Shown piece by piece: positions 6,860-22,417 of a stretch of DNA of 64,000 nt. The notes beneath the pieces were generated by a model. That model was not told where the DNA came from. It was given only the letters and a program-made list of their open reading frames with translations, and made no database searches. A program made the translations under genes and the position numbers. Source of the DNA: an uncultured Acidobacteriota bacterium (GTDB lineage: Bacteria > Acidobacteriota > Vicinamibacteria > Vicinamibacterales > SCN-69-37); contig CAVTWK010000005.1 in assembly GCA_963738485.1 (NCBI GenBank), positions 64,549-128,548 of the forward strand, written 5' to 3'. Every line of letters begins with the position of its first letter. Positions within the stretch are counted from its first letter, which is position 1.

Positions 6860-10872
<4,013 letters not shown>

Positions 10873-10874
10873 CC

Positions 10875-12098
10875 GTGGCGCCGTTGCGAATTGGCATCGA
10901 CGGGCGTGCATTCGGGACCCCGGCCGGCGGCGTGCGGCGCTACGCCACCGAGCTCTTCGCCGCCATGGTGGCGCTCGAGCCCGCCCTCGACCTCGTGGTC
11001 ATCGGCGGTGAGGGAGCAGGCACGACCGGGCGCTGGCAGCCGGCGGCCTCGCTGCTGCCGACCAACCTGGGCTGGTGTGTCGGTGGCCTTCCAGTTGCCG
11101 CGCGTCGCGCGCAGCTCGATCTCTTTCACGCGCCCGCCTATACGGGACCGCTGTGGGGCGTCCACCCATTGGTGCTGACCCTGCACGACGTCAGCTACGC
11201 ACTGCATCCCCACTGGTCGCCGCATCCGAATGGCGTCGGACGCGTCCGGCAGGCGTTCTATCGGGCGTGTGCGGCGCAGGCCGATCGGATCATCACGGAC
11301 TCGACCTTCTCGAAGACCGAGATCATCGCGGCCTACGGGATCGACGAGCGTCGGATCGACGTGGTGCCCCTGGGCGTCGCCGACGTCTTCCGCCCGGACG
11401 CGACCGTGCCGCGCGAACCGGTCGTCCTGCACGTCGGCGATCTCCATCCACGGCGCAATCTGCTGATGCTGCTCGACCTGGTGGTCGATTCGGCCAGGCA
11501 CGAGCCGCGACTGTCCGGCCTGCAACTCGTGCTGGCGGGCCGGGATCTCGGCCTGCTCGACGCCCTGCAGGCGCGGGCGGCCGCACTCGAGGCCACCGAT
11601 CGTCTCCGATACGTCGGTCGTCCTGACGACGCCGGGCTCGCCGACTGGTATCGCCGGGCGGGGGTCATGGCGTATCCGTCGATGTACGAGGGTTTCGGTC
11701 TGCCCGTGCTGGAGGCCCTCGCGTGCGGGACGCCCGTCGTGGCGTCCGACGCCGCCTCGATTCCCGAGGTGACGGGCGACGCGGCGGTCCTGCTGCCGCC
11801 GGACGCCGCCCCGCGTTGGGCCGAGGCCGTGAGGGAGATCCTCCTGCTCGACGATTCCCGGCGCGCGCTGATCTCGGCGCGTGGCATCGCCCGCGCGCGC
11901 GCATTCACCTGGACGCAGACCGCGGCCCGTACGCTCGAGACCTACGAACGGCAGCGACAGCGTTTTCGGAATGCGTGTAGCGGCGCGGACGCGCGACTTC
12001 CGCGCAGTGCTCGCACGGAAGGCGCGCGGGCCTGCGCGGGGAGCGCGGAGCGGCGCTACACGCATTTCGAAAACGCTCTCGTGTCCCGGACGCTATGA
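10875..12098 (+). CDS. Glycosyltransferase family 4 (GT-B)
   Basis: 'MAYPSMYEGFGLPVLEALACGTPVVASDAASIPEVTGDAA' is the EX7E motif region. GTG 10875 follows directly after the upstream stop. The conserved part ends near 11950; the last ~48 codons run through a palindromic element. Confidence 0.8.
   Translation: MAPLRIGIDGRAFGTPAGGVRRYATELFAAMVALEPALDLVVIGGEGAGTTGRWQPAASLLPTNLGWCVGGLPVAARRAQLDLFHAPAYTGPLWGVHPLVLTLHDVSYALHPHWSPHPNGVGRVRQAFYRACAAQADRIITDSTFSKTEIIAAYGIDERRIDVVPLGVADVFRPDATVPREPVVLHVGDLHPRRNLLMLLDLVVDSARHEPRLSGLQLVLAGRDLGLLDALQARAAALEATDRLRYVGRPDDAGLADWYRRAGVMAYPSMYEGFGLPVLEALACGTPVVASDAASIPEVTGDAAVLLPPDAAPRWAEAVREILLLDDSRRALISARGIARARAFTWTQTAARTLETYERQRQRFRNACSGADARLPRSARTEGARACAGSAERRYTHFENALVSRTL
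11957..12077. repeat. ~120-nt imperfect palindrome at the junction of two convergent genes
   Basis: agcgttttcggaatgcgtgtagcggcgc (from 11958) pairs with gcgctacacgcatttcgaaaacgct (to ~12076). There is an inner cttccg...cggaag pairing. The element lies inside the 3' tail of the 10875..12098 ORF. Confidence 0.7.
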
Positions 12099-14730: not shown

Positions 14731-14850
14731 CGACCCCGGCGGCCCTCCCGAGGCTCCAGCGCGGAAGACGTGGCCGACATCTACAGCCACGACAAGCAGT
14801 TACGCGAAGTCTAGCGTCCGCTCCGTCACCGGTCAAGACAGGATCGACCG

Positions 14851-15857
14851 GTGACCGTGCTCCCCGTCAGTCTCATCATCCTCAATTGGAACGGGCACGC
14901 CTGGCTGGATGGCTGTCTCCGCGCCGTGCTCGCCCTCGACCCGGCGCCGGCCGAGGTGATTGTGGTGGACAATGCCTCGACCGACGAGAGCGTGGCCTTC
15001 GTCCGGCGCGCGTTCCCCACCGTCAGGGTCGTGGCGCTCGACCACAACGTCGGCTTCGCCGCCGGCAACAACGCCGGGGCCCGCACCTGCGCGACGACCT
15101 TCCTCGTCTTCCTGAACAACGACACCCGCGTCCACCCGGACTGGCTCGGCCGTCTCGTCGCGCCGGCCGACGCCTCGTCCGACGTCGGTCTCGTGACGTC
15201 GCGTGTCGTCTTCATGGAGCCGCCCGGCGTCCTCGACTCGGCCGGTGACGGGTACCTGCGATGCGGCGGCGCCTTCAAGCACCACCACGGGCAGGCCGAG
15301 GCGGAGGCACTGACGTCGCGCGAGGTCTTCAGCGCCTGCGGCGCGGCGTTGCTCATCAGGCGGGATCTCTTCGAAGCGCTCGAGGGGTTCGATGAGGATT
15401 TCTTCATGGTCTACGAGGACGTGGACCTCTCGTACCGCGCACGCCTGCGCGGGGCGCGGTGCGTCTATGCCGCCGACGCGATCGTGCTGCACGCCGGCAG
15501 CGCGAGTCTCGGACGCGTCAGGTACCGGCGGCCGTCTTCTACGGTCAGCGCAATCTCGAGTGGACATGGCTCAAGAACTCGCCCGGTCCGCTGCTGTGGC
15601 GATCGCTCGTGCCGCACCTGCTCTACGATCTCGCGGGAGCGGCCGGCTACGCGCGTCGCGGCCAGTTGCTGACCTGGTGCCGGGCCAAGTGGGCCGTCGT
15701 CCGATCGTGGCCGGCCCTTCGTCGCAAGCGCCGGCAGGTGCAGCAGCGGACGTCGGTGGACCCCGAACGGCTCTGGGCGCTGATGGATGCGGACTGGGTG
15801 TCGATCAAGCGCCGTGAGAAGCGCTTTGATTTCGGCAGCTACTCGCGTCGCCCGTAG
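14851..15857 (+). pseudogene. Family 2 glycosyltransferase, reading frame broken once (~15515-15535)
   Basis: The frame from GTG 14851 gives 'LIILNWNG...VVDNASTDES...NVGFAAGNN...YEDVDLSYR...HAGSASLG'. The conserved continuation 'AAVFYGQRNLEWTWLKN...' is in the 15459..15857 frame. Confidence 0.75.
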
Positions 15858-15864
15858 AGTCTGC

Positions 15865-17403
15865 CTACGGGCGCCGAGCAGCGGCGCCTGGCTCGGGCGC
15901 GCGGTGCACGCTGGCGATCCGGATCGGCAGCGCCATCAGCAGGCCGAGCAACAGCACGAGACCCACGCGAGCGCGGCCAGGTGCCGACGGGCCGGCCGCC
16001 CCCGCGTGCCAGGCCGTGGTCAGGCCGAGCACCGCACAGAACGCGAAGAGCACCTGCGTGATGATCAGGGGGTGTCCGAGCAGGCACGACAACAGGAAGG
16101 CCAGCAGGCCTCCGGCGAGTGCGAGGCCCTCTGGGGTCGCGGTTGACGACCGGATCGCAGCCGCCACGCCGGTCGCCGCCGACGCGAGCAGCCACACCCA
16201 CAGGCCGAAGCCGACGAGGCCAAGTTCGGCGAGGATTTGGACGAACTGGTTGTGCGCGTTCTCTCCGGCCGCCGCCGAGGGGAACCGTGCGGCGAACTCG
16301 GGCGTGATGAGTGCGGACGATGCGCGCCTGAACTGGCCAACGCCGACGCCGAAGACCGGATCTTCGACAGCGAGTTGCAGCCCGATCCGGGACAACTCGA
16401 CGCGGATCCCTGCGGCGACCGCTGGCGAGGCGCGCGTCCGTCCGTACTGGCTGGTGATCACGCCGGCTGCCAGGATCGCCAGGCCGAGGGCTCCTGCGAG
16501 CACGATTGGGCGAGGGCGGCGCTCCAGGGCCCAGAGCGCCGCGAGACTCACCAGCGCGGCGCCGATGGCCGCCCGTGACCCCGTCATCCACAGCGCCAGC
16601 AGCGGCACCGGCGTGAGCGCCAGGACCCAGCGCCATCGCGGGTGCCAGCCGAGCCACACCATCGGGACCAGGCAGAGCACATAGAATGACCCGGCCGCGT
16701 TCGCGTCGCCGTAGTGCGGGTTCATCCGCAACGTGCTCAGGTATGTGAAGGCGCTCCGCCACGGGTCGAGCGTGCGGATGGACACTTCACTCAGGCGGAG
16801 GACCGCAAACGCCGCGGCCGCCGCGCCGCCAATCAGCAGCAGGCGTGTCGCCGCCGCCCGACTGTCCGCGTCGCGCCGCAGGACGCGCTCGACGAGCACG
16901 GCCAGCAGCAGCGCCTCGCTCCAGCGGATGGCCATGCGGAGGCCCGCGAACGCCGCCGGGTCGGAGTAGTACGTGCGGTCGAGGTGGCCCGCGAGCGCGG
17001 CCGGCGTGACCGTGTCAGCGGAGCCACCCGACGCCAGGCCGACGGTCGCGGACCCCAGAACGGTCGCCGCGAGCAACGCCGCCGGCCACGCGAGACGCGA
17101 GGCCGCGGCCTCGCCCGTGAGCGCGGCGTGAAGCGTGGCGGCCAGCAGGAACGGGACCACGAGCAGTTCGGCCGACTCGGCGCCGGAGAACGGCGAGCCC
17201 GACAACACCTGGATTTGGGTGGCCAGCGGCAGCAGGGCCACGACCACCAGGAGGCCATGGGCTGGCCGCATGGCGGTCAGCACCAGCACGGCCGTGCTGA
17301 GGATTTGGAGCAGCGGCGTGACGGCGTCTCCGCGCCAGGTGGCCCACCAGGGCCCGACGACCAGGAGCGCAGGCAGAGCGAGAAGAACGCGCGGAAGGAT
17401 CAC
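15865..17403 (-). CDS. O-antigen ligase / polymerase family (Wzy_C) membrane protein
   Basis: 512 aa, polytopic. 'NPHYGDANAAGSF' and 'WMTGSRAAIGAALVS...AHNQFVQILAELG' are typical of the O-antigen ligase-like family. Confidence 0.7.
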   Translation of the reverse strand: MILPRVLLALPALLVVGPWWATWRGDAVTPLLQILSTAVLVLTAMRPAHGLLVVVALLPLATQIQVLSGSPFSGAESAELLVVPFLLAATLHAALTGEAAASRLAWPAALLAATVLGSATVGLASGGSADTVTPAALAGHLDRTYYSDPAAFAGLRMAIRWSEALLLAVLVERVLRRDADSRAAATRLLLIGGAAAAAFAVLRLSEVSIRTLDPWRSAFTYLSTLRMNPHYGDANAAGSFYVLCLVPMVWLGWHPRWRWVLALTPVPLLALWMTGSRAAIGAALVSLAALWALERRPRPIVLAGALGLAILAAGVITSQYGRTRASPAVAAGIRVELSRIGLQLAVEDPVFGVGVGQFRRASSALITPEFAARFPSAAAGENAHNQFVQILAELGLVGFGLWVWLLASAATGVAAAIRSSTATPEGLALAGGLLAFLLSCLLGHPLIITQVLFAFCAVLGLTTAWHAGAAGPSAPGRARVGLVLLLGLLMALPIRIASVHRAPEPGAAARRP

Positions 17404-17472
17404 GGCACGGGATCGAGCGGGGAGCGACGCGAGTCTAGCATGTGCGCCCTCCGCCCGATCCCGCGCGGGCCC

Positions 17473-19393
17473 TCACCGCGGCTCGTCGGGCGGATACCAG
17501 TTGCCGCCGATGCAGCGGCCGCCACCGAGAATCACGAACGGATCGGGCGTGGGACATCCCCCGGACGTGGGCGGCGTCGGCGCGGGCGCCGGCGTGTTTC
17601 CGGGCGGCGTGATCCCGGGCGGGTACCAGTTGCCGCCCACGCACGTCCCCCCACCGAAGATCGCAAACGGGTCCAGTGTGGCGCAGCCGGCCGGCGGCGT
17701 CGGCGGCGTCGGGGCCGGAGGATTGGGTGTGGGCGCCGGTGGAACCGGGGTCGGCGCCGGAGGAGCAGGCGTCGGCGGCACCACTGGCGGCGGGGGCGCG
17801 ACACCCGGCGGCGCGATGCCGGGCGGATACCAGTTCCCACCCGCGCACACGCCGCCGCCGAGACCGGCAAACGGATTGCTGCCCGGGCAACTGATGTCCA
17901 CCGGTGGCGTCGGCGGCGTCGGTGGATTGACGGGAGCCGGTGGGGGTGGGTTGGGCGTCGGTGTGGGCAAGCCTGGCGGCGGCGGCGCCGGCGGCTCGGG
18001 CGTGGAGGGGGGCGGCTCGGGCGTCGGCACCGGCGGGACGGGCGGCGTCGGCTCCGCCGGGGGCGTCATGCCCGGGGGTACCAGTTGCCCCCCGCGCACG
18101 TCCCTCCGCCCAGAATCGCGAACGGGTCTGGCGACGTGCACGTGCCCGGCGGGGCGGGCGTGCCCGGCACAGACGGGGCGGGCGTGGGAGCGGTCGCCGT
18201 GTCGAGCACGATGCGGTGCACCGTCCCGCTCCTGTAGTTCACGACGTAGATCTCACCGCCGGCATCGACGCCGAAGCTCGAGGGGAACTGCGCGCCATCG
18301 TCGAGGCCGTCGGTGTGCTCCTGGAGGTCACCCACCGAACCCGGGTCCGCCCCGGCATCCACCGCGAGCGACCAGATGCGGCTGCGCACGAAGTCGCCGA
18401 AGAAATATCGCCCGATGTAGGCCGACCCGAGCGCGGAGCCCCGATAGACCACGCCGCCCGTGATCGACCGGCCCTCGACGTGCGAGTACTGGAAAATCGG
18501 ATCGGTCAGCGATGGCGAGAAGGGCTCCAGGTCCGTGAGGTAGTCCTGCGCCCCCTCGCGATTCCGCCAGCCGTAGTTCCGCCCGCCGGCGCCGGCCGGC
18601 TCGGTGTTGATCTCCTCCCAGCCGCCCTGTCCCACGTCGGCTGAGACCAGACCACCCGAACCGCCCCGCGCCGGATCATCGAAACTCCACCGCCAGGGGT
18701 TGCGCCAGCCGAACGACCAGATCTCGCCGAGCACCCCCTCGTGACCCACGAAGGGGTTGTCAGCCGGCACGTCGTACCCCTCCGGATCGTCGTCGCCGAC
18801 CGAGACGTCGATTCGCAGGAACTTGCCGAGCAGCGACCGCGGATCCTGGGCGAGATGATCCGGGTCGTCTCCCGACCCGCCATCGCCGAGCCCCACGTAC
18901 AGGTAGCCGTCAGGCCCGAACGCGAGTTGGCCGCCGTGGTGGTTGGCGGACGGCTTGTCGATGAACGGCTGGCCGTCGGGCCACACGAGATCGAAGCGCG
19001 AGGCCGGATCGGCCCGCAACGGATCGTCGCCGGATCGGAGGAAGCGCGCGATGACGGTGCGCCCCGACAGATCGATGAAGTTGATGTAGAGCCGGCCGCT
19101 CGAAGCGTAGTCGGGCGCAAACGCCAAGCCGAGCAGGCCCTTCTCGCCGTCGCTATCGACGTCAATCGCGAGGAAGTCCGACTCCTGCAGGACGCCGTCC
19201 TTCAGTGTCCGGACCCGGCCGCCCTTCTCCACGAGGACCTGGACGGTGGGATCCGACGGATCCTGGACGAACGCCACCGGGGAGGACAGTCCCGAGACCA
19301 CCAGTTCGGCGCGCAACGGCCATTGCACCGTCGAAGCCCCGAGAGCGACACCAGCGATGGCGAGGACGAGCGCGAGAAGGGAACGGACCACAC
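17473..19393 (-). pseudogene. Secreted PQQ-dependent (GSDH-type) sugar dehydrogenase with 4 C-terminal Cys mini-modules; one frame break at ~18075-18082
   Basis: '[22 protein letters not shown]', '[11 protein letters not shown]' and 'NYGWRNREG' form a beta-propeller GSDH signature. A signal peptide follows GTG 19393. 'GGNWYP' (frame of 18066..19487) continues as 'PGMTPP' in the 17473..18141 frame, across a G5 run. Confidence 0.75.
17482..18140 (-). repeat. Coding repeats: 4 copies of a 24-aa two-cysteine module separated by Pro/Thr-rich linkers (paralog 1)
   Basis: The four copies are [22 protein letters not shown](P)[49 protein letters not shown] and [24 protein letters not shown]. Confidence 0.85.
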
Positions 19394-19584
19394 GACCCCC
19401 TGAAGTTAGACCCCGGTCCTTCGCGATCGATACATGCGGGTGCACGGCCGTGCGGGTGCCGCGGTCTGGCTCGATCGACAACTGCAAACGAAGGGCCGTC
19501 GGCGCTGGGGGGCCTCAGCGCTGCTCGTCCGGCCGCACTCCGTCGTCAGTGCGCGTCACTGCCCGTATCCGCGACGGACCTGGT

Positions 19585-19615
19585 CGCGATCACGCGCGCC
19601 GAGCGCGTGATCGCG
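19585..19615 (-). terminator. 13-bp perfect stem hairpin immediately 3' of paralog 2; candidate terminator or processing site, no U-tract
   Basis: cgcgatcacgcgc-gccga-gcgcgtgatcgcg, located 3 nt after the stop codon at 19618-19620. Confidence 0.35.
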
Positions 19616-19617
19616 TG

Positions 19618-21414
19618 TCAGATTGACTGCACGATGTGTCGGACCGGCGACAGCCGGTGACGGGTCGCCGACATGGCGGCCTCGACCGCGAGCGTGCCAT
19701 CCGGCGGATACCAGTTGCCGCCGATGCACCGGCCGCCGCCGAGGATCACGAACGGATCGAGCCCGGGACACCCGCTCGTCGGCGGCGCGACCGGCGGCGT
19801 CGGCGTGCCGGGAGGCGTCAGTCCGGGTGGGTACCAGTTCCCGCCGACGCAGGTGCCGCCACCGAGGATGGCGAACGGGTCCGCTCCCGGGCACCCGCCG
19901 GGCGATGGTGTGGGCGGCGCGGGCACCGGTAGCGTCGGCGGCGTGGGTGGCACTGGCACACTCGGCGCGCCCGGCGGCGTGATGCCCGGTGGGTACCAGT
20001 CGCCGTTGGCGCAGGTGCCGCCACCGAGGATGGCAAACGGATCCGGTCCGGGGCAGGTGCTCGGCGCCGCTGTGGGAGGCGCCGGGGTCGGCGTGGGTGG
20101 AGTTGGCGGGATCGGCGCGGGTGTTCCGGGAGGTGTGATGCCGGGTGGGAGCCAGTTGCCGTCGGCGCAGGTGCCGCCGCCGAGGATGGCGAACGGATCC
20201 GCCCCGGGGCAGCTCGCCGCCTCGTCGAGGACGACCTGATGGATGGCGCCGTCGACATAGTTCAGGACGTAGAGTTCGCCGGCCGCGTCCACGCCGAACG
20301 CCGATGGCGAGGAGGCACCGGCGACTAGCGAGGCCGTGTGGTCTTGCAGGTCGCTGGCGATTGCCGGATCGAAGCCCGCGTTGAGGGCGAGTGACCACAC
20401 GCGGTTCGCGGCGAAATCGCCGAAGAAGTATCGCCCGCGGTAGCCGGCACCGAGCGCCGTGCCGCGATAGATCACGCCACCGGTGATGGACCGGCCCTCG
20501 GCATGCGAGTACTCGAACACTGGATCGGTCAGAGGCGTGGCGAAGGGTGGCAGCGACGTGACGTGGTCGTGGCTGCCTTCGCGATTGCGCCAGCCGTAGT
20601 TGCGTCCGCCGACGCCGGCCGGCTCGTAGTTCACTTCTTCCCACTGCCCTTGACCGACGTCGCCCATGATCAGGCCGCCGGTGCCGCCGAACGCCGGGTC
20701 ATCGAACGACCATCGCCACGGGTTTCTCACACCGAACGCCCAGATCTCGCCGAACACGCCGCTGGTGGCCGCGAAGGGGTTGCCAGCCGGCACGTCGTAG
20801 CCCTCGGGATCCGAGTCGGGCACAGACGTGTCGAGCCTCAGCATCTTGCCGAAGAGCGACAGCGGATGCTGGGCCAGATGGGACGGGTCGTTGGAGCTGC
20901 CGCCGTCGCCCACGCCGATGTAGAGGTAGCCATCCGGCCCGAACGCGAGGTGTCCGCCGTTGTGGTTGCCGAACGACTTGGGCAGATAGGGCAGTCCACC
21001 GGGCCAGACGAAGTCCTTGCGGGTGGTCGGATCCGCCTGCAACGGGTCGCTGCCGGACCGGACGAACCGTGCGACGACGATGTGACCGGATGGGTTGTTG
21101 AAGTAGACGAATACGCGCCCGCTCGTCGCGTGATCGGGCGCGAAGGCCAGTCCGAGCAGTCCCTGTTCGCCGCTGCTGGCGACGCTGATCGAGAGGAAGT
21201 CGTGGGCCTGGAGGACGCGGTTCCTCAGGACCCGGACGCGGCCGCCCTGCTCGACGACGAACTGCACCGCCGGATCGACGGGATGCTGAACGAAGGCGAC
21301 GGGGGCGGAGAGTCCGTTGACGACGAACTCGGCGCGCAACTGAGCGAAGCCCCGATTGGGCGGGAGGAGGAGCGCGAGGGCGACGAGCACGAGCCGGACG
21401 CGGCTCCGCAGCAT
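19618..21414 (-). CDS. Secreted PQQ-dependent (GSDH-type) sugar dehydrogenase with 4 C-terminal Cys mini-modules
   Basis: Signal peptide '[19 protein letters not shown]'. '[23 protein letters not shown]', '[11 protein letters not shown]' and 'NYGWRNREG' are GSDH motifs. It is a close paralog of the adjacent gene along the whole length. Confidence 0.85.
19699..20211 (-). repeat. Coding repeats: 4 copies of the 24-aa two-cysteine module (paralog 2)
   Basis: The four copies are [72 protein letters not shown] and [24 protein letters not shown], with P/T/A-rich linkers. Confidence 0.9.
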
Positions 21415-21576
21415 GAAGGTACCTCCAATCGCAGCCGGTCGTCAGGGAGGCCGCATCGAGCTGCTGCTTCCAAATATACGCTCCCACACGTAGCCAGCGG
21501 CCAGGAAAATCGAGTAGGATTTCTGCTTGTTCGTGGCGCGAACAAGCGTGGCGCGCCAGGGCGGAGATCTCAGGCC

Positions 21577-21933
21577 ATGGAAGGCTATACCTTCATCCTC
21601 TTAATGATCGGGTTCGGCCTGGCGTTTTCCGCGGGGAACGTCCTGCTGTCCCAGTTTCTGGGACCGAAGAAGCCGAGTCCCGAGAAGAGCGCGCCCTACG
21701 AGTGCGGGATGCCGCCCGTGGGGGACGCGCGCGAGCGGATGTCGGTCAAGTTCTACCTGGTCGCGATGATCTTCCTGCTGTTCGACATCGAGGTCGCGTT
21801 CCTCTACCCGTGGGCGATTGCGCTGCGGGACCTCGGGGTCGTCGGGTTCTGGCAGATCGTGACGTTCTTCGCGTTGCTCGTCACCGGCTACATCTACGTC
21901 TGGCGCAAGGGCGCCTTCGACTGGAGCCGCTAG
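21577..21933 (+). CDS. nuoA: NADH-quinone oxidoreductase subunit A
   Basis: '[41 protein letters not shown]' is a canonical NuoA sequence. ATG at 21577. Confidence 0.9.
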
Positions 21934-21952
21934 GCGCCCCGGTTCCTCCGTT

Positions 21953-22417
21953 ATGGCAGATATCGAAATTCCCGTCCTGACGACCAGCGTCGAGAAGATG
22001 GTCCAGTGGGCCCGTCGCTCGGCCATCTGGCCGGTGACGTTCGGCCTTGCGTGCTGCGCCATCGAGATGATGGCGATGAGCTGCGGCCGCTACGACATCG
22101 CCCGCTTCGGCGCCGAGGTCTTCCGCGGGTCGCCCCGGCAGGCCGACCTGATGATCATCGCCGGTCGCCTCTCTCGCAAGATGGCGCCCGTGCTTCGCCG
22201 CATCTACGACCAGATGCCGGAACCCAAGTGGGTCATCTCGATGGGCGCCTGCGCCAGTTGCGGCGGCGTGTTCGACAACTACGCCATCGTCCAGGGCGTC
22301 GAGCAGGTGGTGCCGATCGACGTGTTCGTGCCCGGCTGCCCGCCGCGGCCCGAGGCGCTGATCTACGGCATCGTGCAGCTCCAGCGGAAGATCGATAACC
22401 AGCGGATGAGCGCGTGA
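21953..22417 (+). CDS. nuoB: NADH-quinone oxidoreductase subunit B
   Basis: '[14 protein letters not shown]...MGACASCGG...VPGCPPRPE' carries the N2 cluster ligands. Confidence 0.95.

Follow-up and report, generated by a model that had tools for sequence, protein, structure and literature searches.

We asked what kind of element is formed by the short two-cysteine repeats that close two tandem sugar dehydrogenase genes in an uncultured Acidobacteriota bacterium. The stretch analysed, referred to here as the window, comprises 64,000 nucleotides of contig CAVTWK010000005.1 (assembly GCA_963738485.1, positions 64,549 to 128,548) from a member of the Vicinamibacterales (SCN-69-37). Few soil bacteria are as abundant, and as rarely cultured, as the Vicinamibacterales and related Acidobacteria, and how they deploy extracellular enzymes is poorly understood. 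At 17473-21414 the window holds two adjoining minus-strand genes, A and B, which encode GSDH-type paralogs that are 62% identical. A preliminary description of this DNA had credited each gene with four C-terminal copies of an apparently undescribed 24-residue module, and had suggested that it anchors secreted oxidoreductases. As judged by sequence comparison, the module is a real, previously uncatalogued domain family that is best placed among the small accessory binding or anchoring modules.

The module in the window and in protein databases

A six-frame scan of the window with a hidden Markov model (HMM) of the module found eight copies and no others in all 64 kb. The eight scored 32-42 bits with independent E-values (i-E) of 2e-11 to 1e-14; given this significance and the absence of further matches in the window, they are not chance or low-complexity noise. 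All fit the pattern C-x3-[DN]-P-F-x3-G-G-G-x-C-x2-G-x-W-x-P-P, and each has exactly two cysteines spaced 14 residues apart, as first described. In gene A the array starts after residue 398 and spans 19699..20211 on the minus strand, as placed by HMM, sequence and AlphaFold2 (AF2) model, with module cores at 20140-20211 (A1), 19984-20055 (A2), 19822-19893 (A3) and 19699-19770 (A4). The cores in gene B lie, also on the minus strand, at 18075-18140 (B1), 17818-17889 (B2), 17614-17685 (B3) and 17485-17556 (B4). The eight modules are thus real, but the count of four in gene B had tacitly spliced two reading frames across a frameshift, which is treated below. We took a linker to begin one residue past Trp+1 and to run up to the following cysteine. 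The Pro/Thr/Ala-rich linkers of gene A measure 31, 33 and 20 aa between successive modules, and the range over the window is 20-63 aa, not the 15-45 aa first reported.

A profile of the eight modules, with B1 entered as the sequence cut at the frameshift rather than repaired, was then run by exhaustive hmmsearch against 1.84 billion protein representatives clustered at 50% identity. This census returned 283 clusters at E<=1e-3, 185 at E<=1e-10 and 55 at E<=1e-30, so that the wide profile search proposed earlier yielded hundreds of carriers with diverse partner domains. In a word-indexed search with 40-column module profiles, 61 and 193 candidates yielded no more than 1 and 3 short fragments, because a word index is ill-suited to such short queries and not because the module is rare.

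For detailed analysis we used 152 proteins (the best 150 matches plus A and B) with 572 modules. Copy number ranged from 2 to 8 per protein, with a mode of 3-4. The consensus is C-[TAS]-T-P-D-P-F-[VA]-[AS]-[LIM]-G-G-G-[TV]-C-[VY]-N-G-G-W-[LVY]-P-P-G-M, and conservation over the 572 modules was high for Cys1 (97%), Asp (94%), Pro (98%), Phe (97%), the GGG triplet (90/92/96%), Cys2 (99%), the following Gly (97%) and Trp (99%). Linkers had a median of 24 aa and were composed largely of P (35%), G (14%), S (13%), T (11%) and A (10%). The working definition of the family, C-x3-D-P-F-x3-G-G-G-x-C-x-N/G-G-x-W-x-P(-P-G) in at least two copies joined by P/G/S/T-rich linkers, also describes the modules of the window. 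In 106 of the 152 proteins at most 15 aa followed the last module, placing the array at the extreme C-terminus in ~70% of carriers; the remaining ~30% have further domains C-terminal to it.

Known domain families did not account for the module. Neither Pfam-A nor NCBIfam 20 gave a match to it even at E<=10, whether a single module, the array or full-length A and B served as query, and it was likewise unmatched by Pfam in 150 diverse carriers and by NCBIfam in 75. PDB sequences gave no match to the module profile, the weak antibody complementarity-determining-region and sushi-like strings being noise. A Foldseek search of the module model against PDB folds gave circulin B as its best match (E=9.3), with the low sensitivity expected of a 34-residue model. 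Motif strings of the module had no match in the full text of 8 million papers, and a literature search on Vicinamibacter likewise gave nothing relevant. The module can therefore still be called undescribed, and its cysteine pair is conserved at 97-99% across the family. A C-terminal hydrophobic helix was present in 0/152 carriers and no NCBIfam sorting model matched, a point that the preliminary description had proposed to check. We also considered multi-core precursors of ribosomally synthesised and post-translationally modified peptides, with cyclotide-like repeats; these were excluded, because the carriers, exported via Sec, are large, have several domains and vary widely in their N-terminal ones.

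Predicted fold and cysteine pairing

Cysteine statistics were drawn from 550 modules anchored via the DPF...GGG motif. Both cysteines were kept in 546 of them. A second pair is optional: 43 modules have a cysteine directly after Cys2, and all of these (43/43) also have one at Trp+7. No unpaired extra cysteine was found, the other apparent extras being Cys1 of the next module past a short linker. This all-or-none behaviour is covariation of the disulfide type and points to an oxidising, extracytoplasmic location.

AF2 modelling of a 34-residue module, with 91 module sequences as input, gave a predicted local distance difference test (pLDDT) score of 86, with 20/34 residues at 90 or above. In the model, 'A-I-L' lies in a helical turn, and T-C-x pairs with x-W-x in a hairpin around an N-G-G turn. 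In the model of full-length A, which used 66 orthologues as input, the same fold was seen four times at pLDDT ~78-89, and the linkers fell below 50 and were disordered. The covarying second cysteine pair and the confident model back the reading of the module as an autonomously folding mini-domain with a predicted Cys1-Cys15 disulfide staple, much as the preliminary description had supposed. The core would comprise ~24-26 aa, or ~30 aa with the trailing PPG.

Variants of the module were also seen. The four-cysteine form, 'GGGTCCNGGWLPPGMxC', occurs for example in locus L004 (5683-6408), and its two extra cysteines imply a second disulfide. A short-loop form, C-T-T-P-Q-P-x-S-D-W-T-C-V-N-G-N-W-L-P-P-G-F (C-x10-C), replaces the DPF...GGG segment in L006 (9219-9770) and L005 (6295-6372), which reduces the constant core to the C-x-N-G-x-W-x-P-P hairpin. 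One module in L005 has no Cys2.

The last module of the array

The last module of the array is a distinct subtype family-wide. Comparing terminal (n=129) with internal (n=546) modules, we found K or R within four residues after Trp+1 in 46% versus 4%, a 15-residue 'I-P-G-L-x-G-x' loop in 27% versus 0.2%, and W-x-P-P in 41% versus 79%. Terminal modules often end in W-[VI]-P-x-[KR] and often have the 'IPGLxGx' loop or a 'GGGRCI' motif. This specialisation suggests a capping or recognition role.

The subtype bears on the history of the two genes. A4 and B4 ('[20 protein letters not shown]') are identical at 22/24 residues and 91% identical in DNA, and each matches the other modules at only 16-19/24. 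Modules A1-A3 are 86-88% identical to one another in DNA and only 68-77% identical to the B modules. The last module is thus indeed closer between the paralogs than to its neighbours, as had been noted, but one-to-one positional orthology is shown for this module only. The terminal subtype to which A4 and B4 belong also occurs in the non-GSDH carriers P0017, P0020, P0027 and P0059. Because it is found across the family, the likeness of A4 and B4 is no clean proof of an array older than the duplication, and the earlier statement that the array predates the gene duplication over-reads the data. From the sequence comparison, the A4-B4 likeness reflects positional constraint, possibly together with gene conversion and intragenic homogenisation.

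The catalytic propeller of genes A and B

Gene A is an intact open reading frame (ORF) of 598 aa (19618..21414, minus strand) for a secreted GSDH-type protein, and its product matches public protein P0155, from a 966-kb contig, at 100%. Reading from the sequence, a signal-peptide-like leader occupies aa 1-24 ([24 protein letters not shown]; 21343..21414, minus strand); it is hydrophobic, and in the AF2 model aa 2-15 form a helix that precedes the propeller. The six-bladed beta-propeller of the GSDH/pyrroloquinoline quinone (PQQ) sugar dehydrogenase type follows at aa 25-398 (20221..21342, minus strand; Pfam PF07995). That each gene encodes such a propeller was borne out by PF07995 matches of 100 bits for A (E=2e-28) and 122 bits for B (E=4e-35), against a cut-off of 25.

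The full-length model of A had a mean pLDDT of 85 and exceeded 90 across most of aa 30-400. Foldseek placed it with the PQQ sugar dehydrogenases 2ISM (template-modelling score 0.86), 3A9G (0.84), 3DAS (0.83) and 2G8S; chains of HHIP, the vertebrate Hedgehog-interacting protein, were the top matches, and the fungal AA12 enzymes were more distant. Sequence matches of the A propeller in PDB were HHIP, again at the top, 3DAS, 2ISM and 2G8S. An 'NHNGG' His/Gly block was invariant across 66 GSDH orthologues, and close relatives carry the source name 'PQQ-dependent sugar dehydrogenase [Vicinamibacterales bacterium]'. The catalytic part of A and B is thus predicted to be an ordinary PQQ-type (GSDH) sugar dehydrogenase. 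The plus-strand ORFs that overlap A and B are the usual antisense ORFs of ~70% GC DNA.

The gene B frameshift

Gene B is interrupted within its first module. The first frame (18066..19391, minus strand), an ORF with leader, Pfam GSDH propeller and module B1, ends at a TGA at 18066-18068 ('...GGNWYPRA*'), and modules B2-B4 lie in the -1 frame, in ORF 17473-18141. The second part of the gene (17473..18073, minus strand) contains linkers, B2-B4 and the stop codon, with all conserved residues intact. In B1, a homopolymer run of five C residues (18074..18078, minus strand) is read from the sequence as missing one base: with one C added, the sequence reads 'NWYPPGMTPP' and the protein has 671 aa and four modules. 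In the public annotation of the same contig, gene B is a truncated 441-aa product, P0199.

Past the shift the frame remains open for 222 codons and holds three perfect modules. Because this downstream frame is intact, we favour as the origin of the lesion either a homopolymer error in the assembly or a mutation of very recent date. Programmed -1 frameshifting at the C5 run via tRNA-Pro slippage is conceivable, but the site has no canonical X XXY YYZ heptamer. Arrays in two loci of metagenome-assembled genomes (MAGs), L002 (5992-6574) and L003 (5649-6559), are also broken by several frameshifts, so that assembly error or recent mutation is preferred over programmed slippage. These two loci suggest that GC-rich, repeat-rich module arrays are prone to assembly errors.

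Partner domains and taxonomic range of the carriers

We next examined which proteins carry the module. Pfam partners were fn3, Big_7/Big_13, Flg_new_2, Pur_ac_phosph_N, DUF11, GH30C, PLDc_2, DMFA2_C, CEMIP beta-helix/G8, Beta_helix/NosD, Exo_endo_phos, BACON and GSDH, the last being a minor partner among the representatives. NCBIfam added 'choice-of-anchor' domains (GloVer TIGR03803 at E=3e-96; NxxGxxAF and choice_anch_R more weakly) and a weak resemblance of carriers to PEP-CTERM- or MYXO-CTERM-anchored families. Homologues of the choice-of-anchor families elsewhere bear other C-terminal anchors. Where source annotations of carriers were looked up, they gave no more than 'hypothetical protein' or the name of the N-terminal domain.

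The commonest partner is an unannotated domain of ~360 aa, present in 62 of 150 representatives (P0003, P0007, P0009, P0015, P0016, P0027 and others), for which neither Pfam nor PDB sequences gave a match. Motifs such as 'YSPD..NG.GGFLV.W' and 'AWNP.TNEFGV' recur in it. An unannotated beta-rich domain of ~68 aa (pattern 'T.TV.F....GGFWAL..DDGR.F.P..GL...F...GLRV.F.G') was seen C-terminal to the array in 26 of 216 proteins, among them the C-terminus of P0193 (L006, ~9900-10109) and L002 (6575-6781). Its only Pfam matches, to SsfX3_N, to DUF5818 and, in one carrier, to DUF1344, were sub-threshold. Many members of the GSDH orthologue group carry the array, with 3-6 modules from about residue 400; the other members have FG-GAP/VCBS or other C-terminal extensions, or none.

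Named carriers are Vicinamibacterales MAGs, and named and binned carriers together are nearly all from Vicinamibacterales/Acidobacteriota. A scan of 185,579 species genomes, a narrow one that used patterns restricted to residues observed in the window and is no census, gave four loci, in three Acidobacteriota MAGs and one MAG labelled Acidimicrobiia. A metagenome scan built on 12 consensus-like modules gave 141 confirmed stretches, from which 79 loci were kept. Module-bearing genes cluster, with two arrays in 7 of 85 loci. The ~360-aa domain with modules lies directly upstream of a GSDH gene with modules in L014 (2-1810), L032 (283-2130) and L051 (1199-3163), and L072 has a tandem GSDH pair like that of the window.

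Genomic neighbourhood

Directly downstream of the pair lies a gene for a Wzy_C membrane protein of the O-antigen ligase/polymerase family (15865..17403, minus strand; Pfam PF04932, E=9e-16). It is the first gene of a polysaccharide locus that further encodes a glycosyltransferase family 4 (GT4)/sugar-phosphate transferase, GT2, GT1 and epimerases, which agrees with the placement of the pair in the preliminary description. In L006 (Vicinamibacterales MAG GCA_035633215.1, 110-14296) the arrangement recurs: the GSDH-module gene has the nuo operon on one side and Wzy_C on the other, with thiS, thiG and a methyltransferase gene interposed and with thiS and thiG flanking the GSDH-module gene. Since proximity to Wzy_C recurs there, the adjacency to the polysaccharide locus can be read as conserved gene order.

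In the window, the corresponding neighbourhood (15865-22417) has nuoA-H on one side of the GSDH-module gene and Wzy_C on the other. The window has no thiS or thiG at this position, where a second GSDH paralog is found instead; thiG follows the GSDH-module gene in L001 (506-1303). Three long ORFs of the polysaccharide locus, at 8680-10872 (plus strand), 10185-12065 (minus strand) and 14833-15567 (minus strand), had no Pfam or NCBIfam match, and the first two overlap on opposite strands.

Relation to known accessory modules

The closest parallels in design are small carbohydrate-binding modules (CBMs). CBM1, CBM10 and CBM104 are, like the module, tiny and disulfide-stabilised with conserved aromatic residues, and CBM1-type modules likewise sit C-terminally in secreted enzymes, behind Pro/Thr/Ser-rich linkers. 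AA12-CBM1 proteins share with A and B the order of a GSDH-like PQQ beta-propeller followed by a C-terminal mini-module. In the AA12 member CcPDH, the PQQ-dependent pyranose dehydrogenase of Coprinopsis cinerea, it is the CBM1 at the C-terminus that lets the enzyme bind cellulose (PMC4332668). The set of small CBM families continues to grow, as with the fungal CBM104 of ~55 aa and four cysteines (PMC13575373), a description that excludes assignment of the module to CBM104. More generally, the module has two cysteines in ~25 aa and is bacterial, whereas CBM1 and CBM104 have at least four in 36-55 aa; it comes in 2-8 tandem copies where CBM1 is single, and most of its partners are not recognisable carbohydrate-active enzymes (CAZymes). 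To known CBM families it had no Pfam match (window proteins and 150 carriers) and no PDB sequence or fold match.

In its logic the array recalls SLH, LysM, choline-binding (PF01473) and GW repeats, which also occur in several copies at one terminus of unrelated exoproteins within one lineage. Their retention on an envelope polymer via avidity is what we propose for the module. These repeats are not homologous to it, however, and form larger units or contiguous solenoids without disulfides, whereas the module is disulfide-stapled and its units are set apart by disordered linkers of the median length given above. PEP-CTERM, MYXO-CTERM, LPXTG and the C-terminal domain (CTD) of the type IX secretion system (T9SS) resemble it in being C-terminal, lineage-specific and attached to the same N-terminal choice-of-anchor domains. 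Sorting domains of the PEP-CTERM type differ in that the module is multicopy and has neither transmembrane helix nor basic tail (0/152). The features that define PEP-CTERM, MYXO-CTERM, LPXTG and GlyGly-CTERM signals were not found in it.

HHIP offers a further parallel, as its GSDH-like propeller is followed by EGF repeats much as the propeller of A is followed by small modules. Small disulfide-rich modules thus also lie past the propeller in HHIP. The 'C-x-N-G-G' hairpin turn of the module resembles the major hairpin motif of EGF. The EGF domains of HHIP nevertheless have six cysteines and another topology, with no detectable homology to the module; the module has two cysteines (four in 43 of 550) and no Pfam match to EGF-like families. 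The resemblance is probably convergent.

A possible tether and its alternatives

How might such an array act? By analogy with the systems above, it could be a multivalent tether to a polymer of the envelope or extracellular matrix, most probably a glycan, and we judge the chances of this reading to be about even. Each module would be a weak binding unit and the array would bind via avidity, holding diverse secreted proteins on a polymeric ligand such as extracellular polysaccharide (EPS), O-antigen or peptidoglycan. The terminal module, being specialised, might serve as a cap or engage in a contact of its own. We infer the tether from the multiple copies, the flexible linkers, the mostly C-terminal position, the many unrelated exoproteins that carry the array, and the lack of a membrane anchor or sorting signal in them. 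Several points weigh against it. Ligand binding by the module is itself something that we infer by analogy. Recognisable CAZymes make up a minority of the partner domains, which argues against a classical substrate-targeting CBM. The invariant Trp lies opposite Cys2 in the model and may pack on the disulfide, in which case it would be structural and not sugar-stacking. That the pair adjoins the polysaccharide locus may reflect no more than a conserved gene order, and the evidence for lineage restriction consists of a handful of named MAGs and a single narrow scan of genomes. As for the earlier proposal of an anchoring module for oxidoreductases, anchoring remains plausible, but the partners are diverse and GSDH is only a minor one among them.

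Other readings share part of this evidence. Arrays could instead dock carriers, in the manner of dockerins, into a surface receptor, scaffold or S-layer and so group related enzymes. The same tag on many unrelated exoproteins of one lineage would fit this, as would the terminal subtype, which suggests a specific contact, and the recurrence of adjoining array-bearing genes (pairs of the ~360-aa family with GSDH, and GSDH tandems), which is expected of complex components. We nonetheless consider docking unlikely: no cohesin-like receptor candidate was seen beside carriers in the neighbourhoods examined, and 2-8 copies spaced by long flexible linkers are better suited to avid binding of a repetitive polymer than to one-to-one docking. 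In addition, the module has one conserved Asp and no EF-hand-like DxNxDGxxxxxD motif, hence no calcium-binding or dockerin signature, and no Pfam match to dockerin (PF00404). Equally improbable in our view is an inert spacer: a Pro/Thr/Ser stalk, possibly O-glycosylated, would project or solubilise the catalytic domain, and the modules would stud it as beads that resist proteases and do no binding themselves. The PT/S/G-rich, predicted disordered linkers are what a stalk would have, and two genomes have a Wzy_C gene beside or close to the GSDH-module gene; PglL-type O-oligosaccharyltransferases belong to the Wzy_C family. A role of this neighbour as linker O-glycosyltransferase is speculation, and the Wzy_C protein matched the NCBIfam model PEP_O_lig_1 only weakly (29.7 bits against a cut-off of 188). 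A stalk also needs a distal anchor, where no transmembrane helix, lipobox or sorting signal is present, and the ~12 near-invariant positions over the 572 modules, together with the terminal subtype, indicate selection beyond bulk.

We regard it as still less probable that the array or its last module is an export or sorting signal recognised by a lineage-specific secretion or processing machine, comparable to the T9SS CTD or PEP-CTERM/exosortase. The extreme C-terminal position in most carriers is compatible with such a signal, as are the distinct last module with its frequent W-[VI]-P-x-[KR] ending and the choice-of-anchor partners related to PEP-CTERM and MYXO-CTERM proteins. Known signals, however, are single-copy, nearly a third of carriers continue with domains beyond the array, the architecture of transmembrane helix and basic cluster is missing, and the neighbourhoods examined showed no conserved gene for such a machine. 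Finally, the frameshift in gene B and the frame-split arrays of L002 and L003 could be taken to mean that the module is no real domain but a compositional or assembly artefact of GC-rich, Pro-rich repeats, or that gene B is a decaying pseudogene. For the module this is effectively refuted by hundreds of independent carriers from many assemblies with the same near-invariant positions and by the intact arrays of gene A and most orthologues. For gene B, the long open frame past the shift, in which every conserved residue is kept, speaks against it and points to a homopolymer error or a very recent event.

Implications

The module supplies annotators with a new domain model and marks hundreds of secreted proteins; two further unannotated domains, of ~360 and ~68 aa, travel with it. 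It is a clean lineage-wide tag and overturns no concept by itself. The tag defines, from sequence alone, a candidate exoproteome that is retained on the surface or in the matrix, and the parallel to fungal AA12-CBM1 proteins suggests that bacterial PQQ sugar dehydrogenases, too, can be tethered near polymeric substrates. If a ligand were found, a scaffold of ~25 residues with a single disulfide could serve as a fusion tag.

A broader and more tentative view, which we hold to be possible but rather less probable than the tether as such, is that the array serves the Vicinamibacterales as the address label of a surface-display system peculiar to their lineage, with the terminal module as recognition or cap element and co-tagged neighbours as surface-assembled units. 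The tagged cargo would then comprise dehydrogenases, beta-helix enzymes, nucleases, adhesin-like proteins and the ~360-aa family, and the array would represent a general, unrecognised route by which a diderm soil phylum keeps a varied exoproteome on its envelope or EPS.

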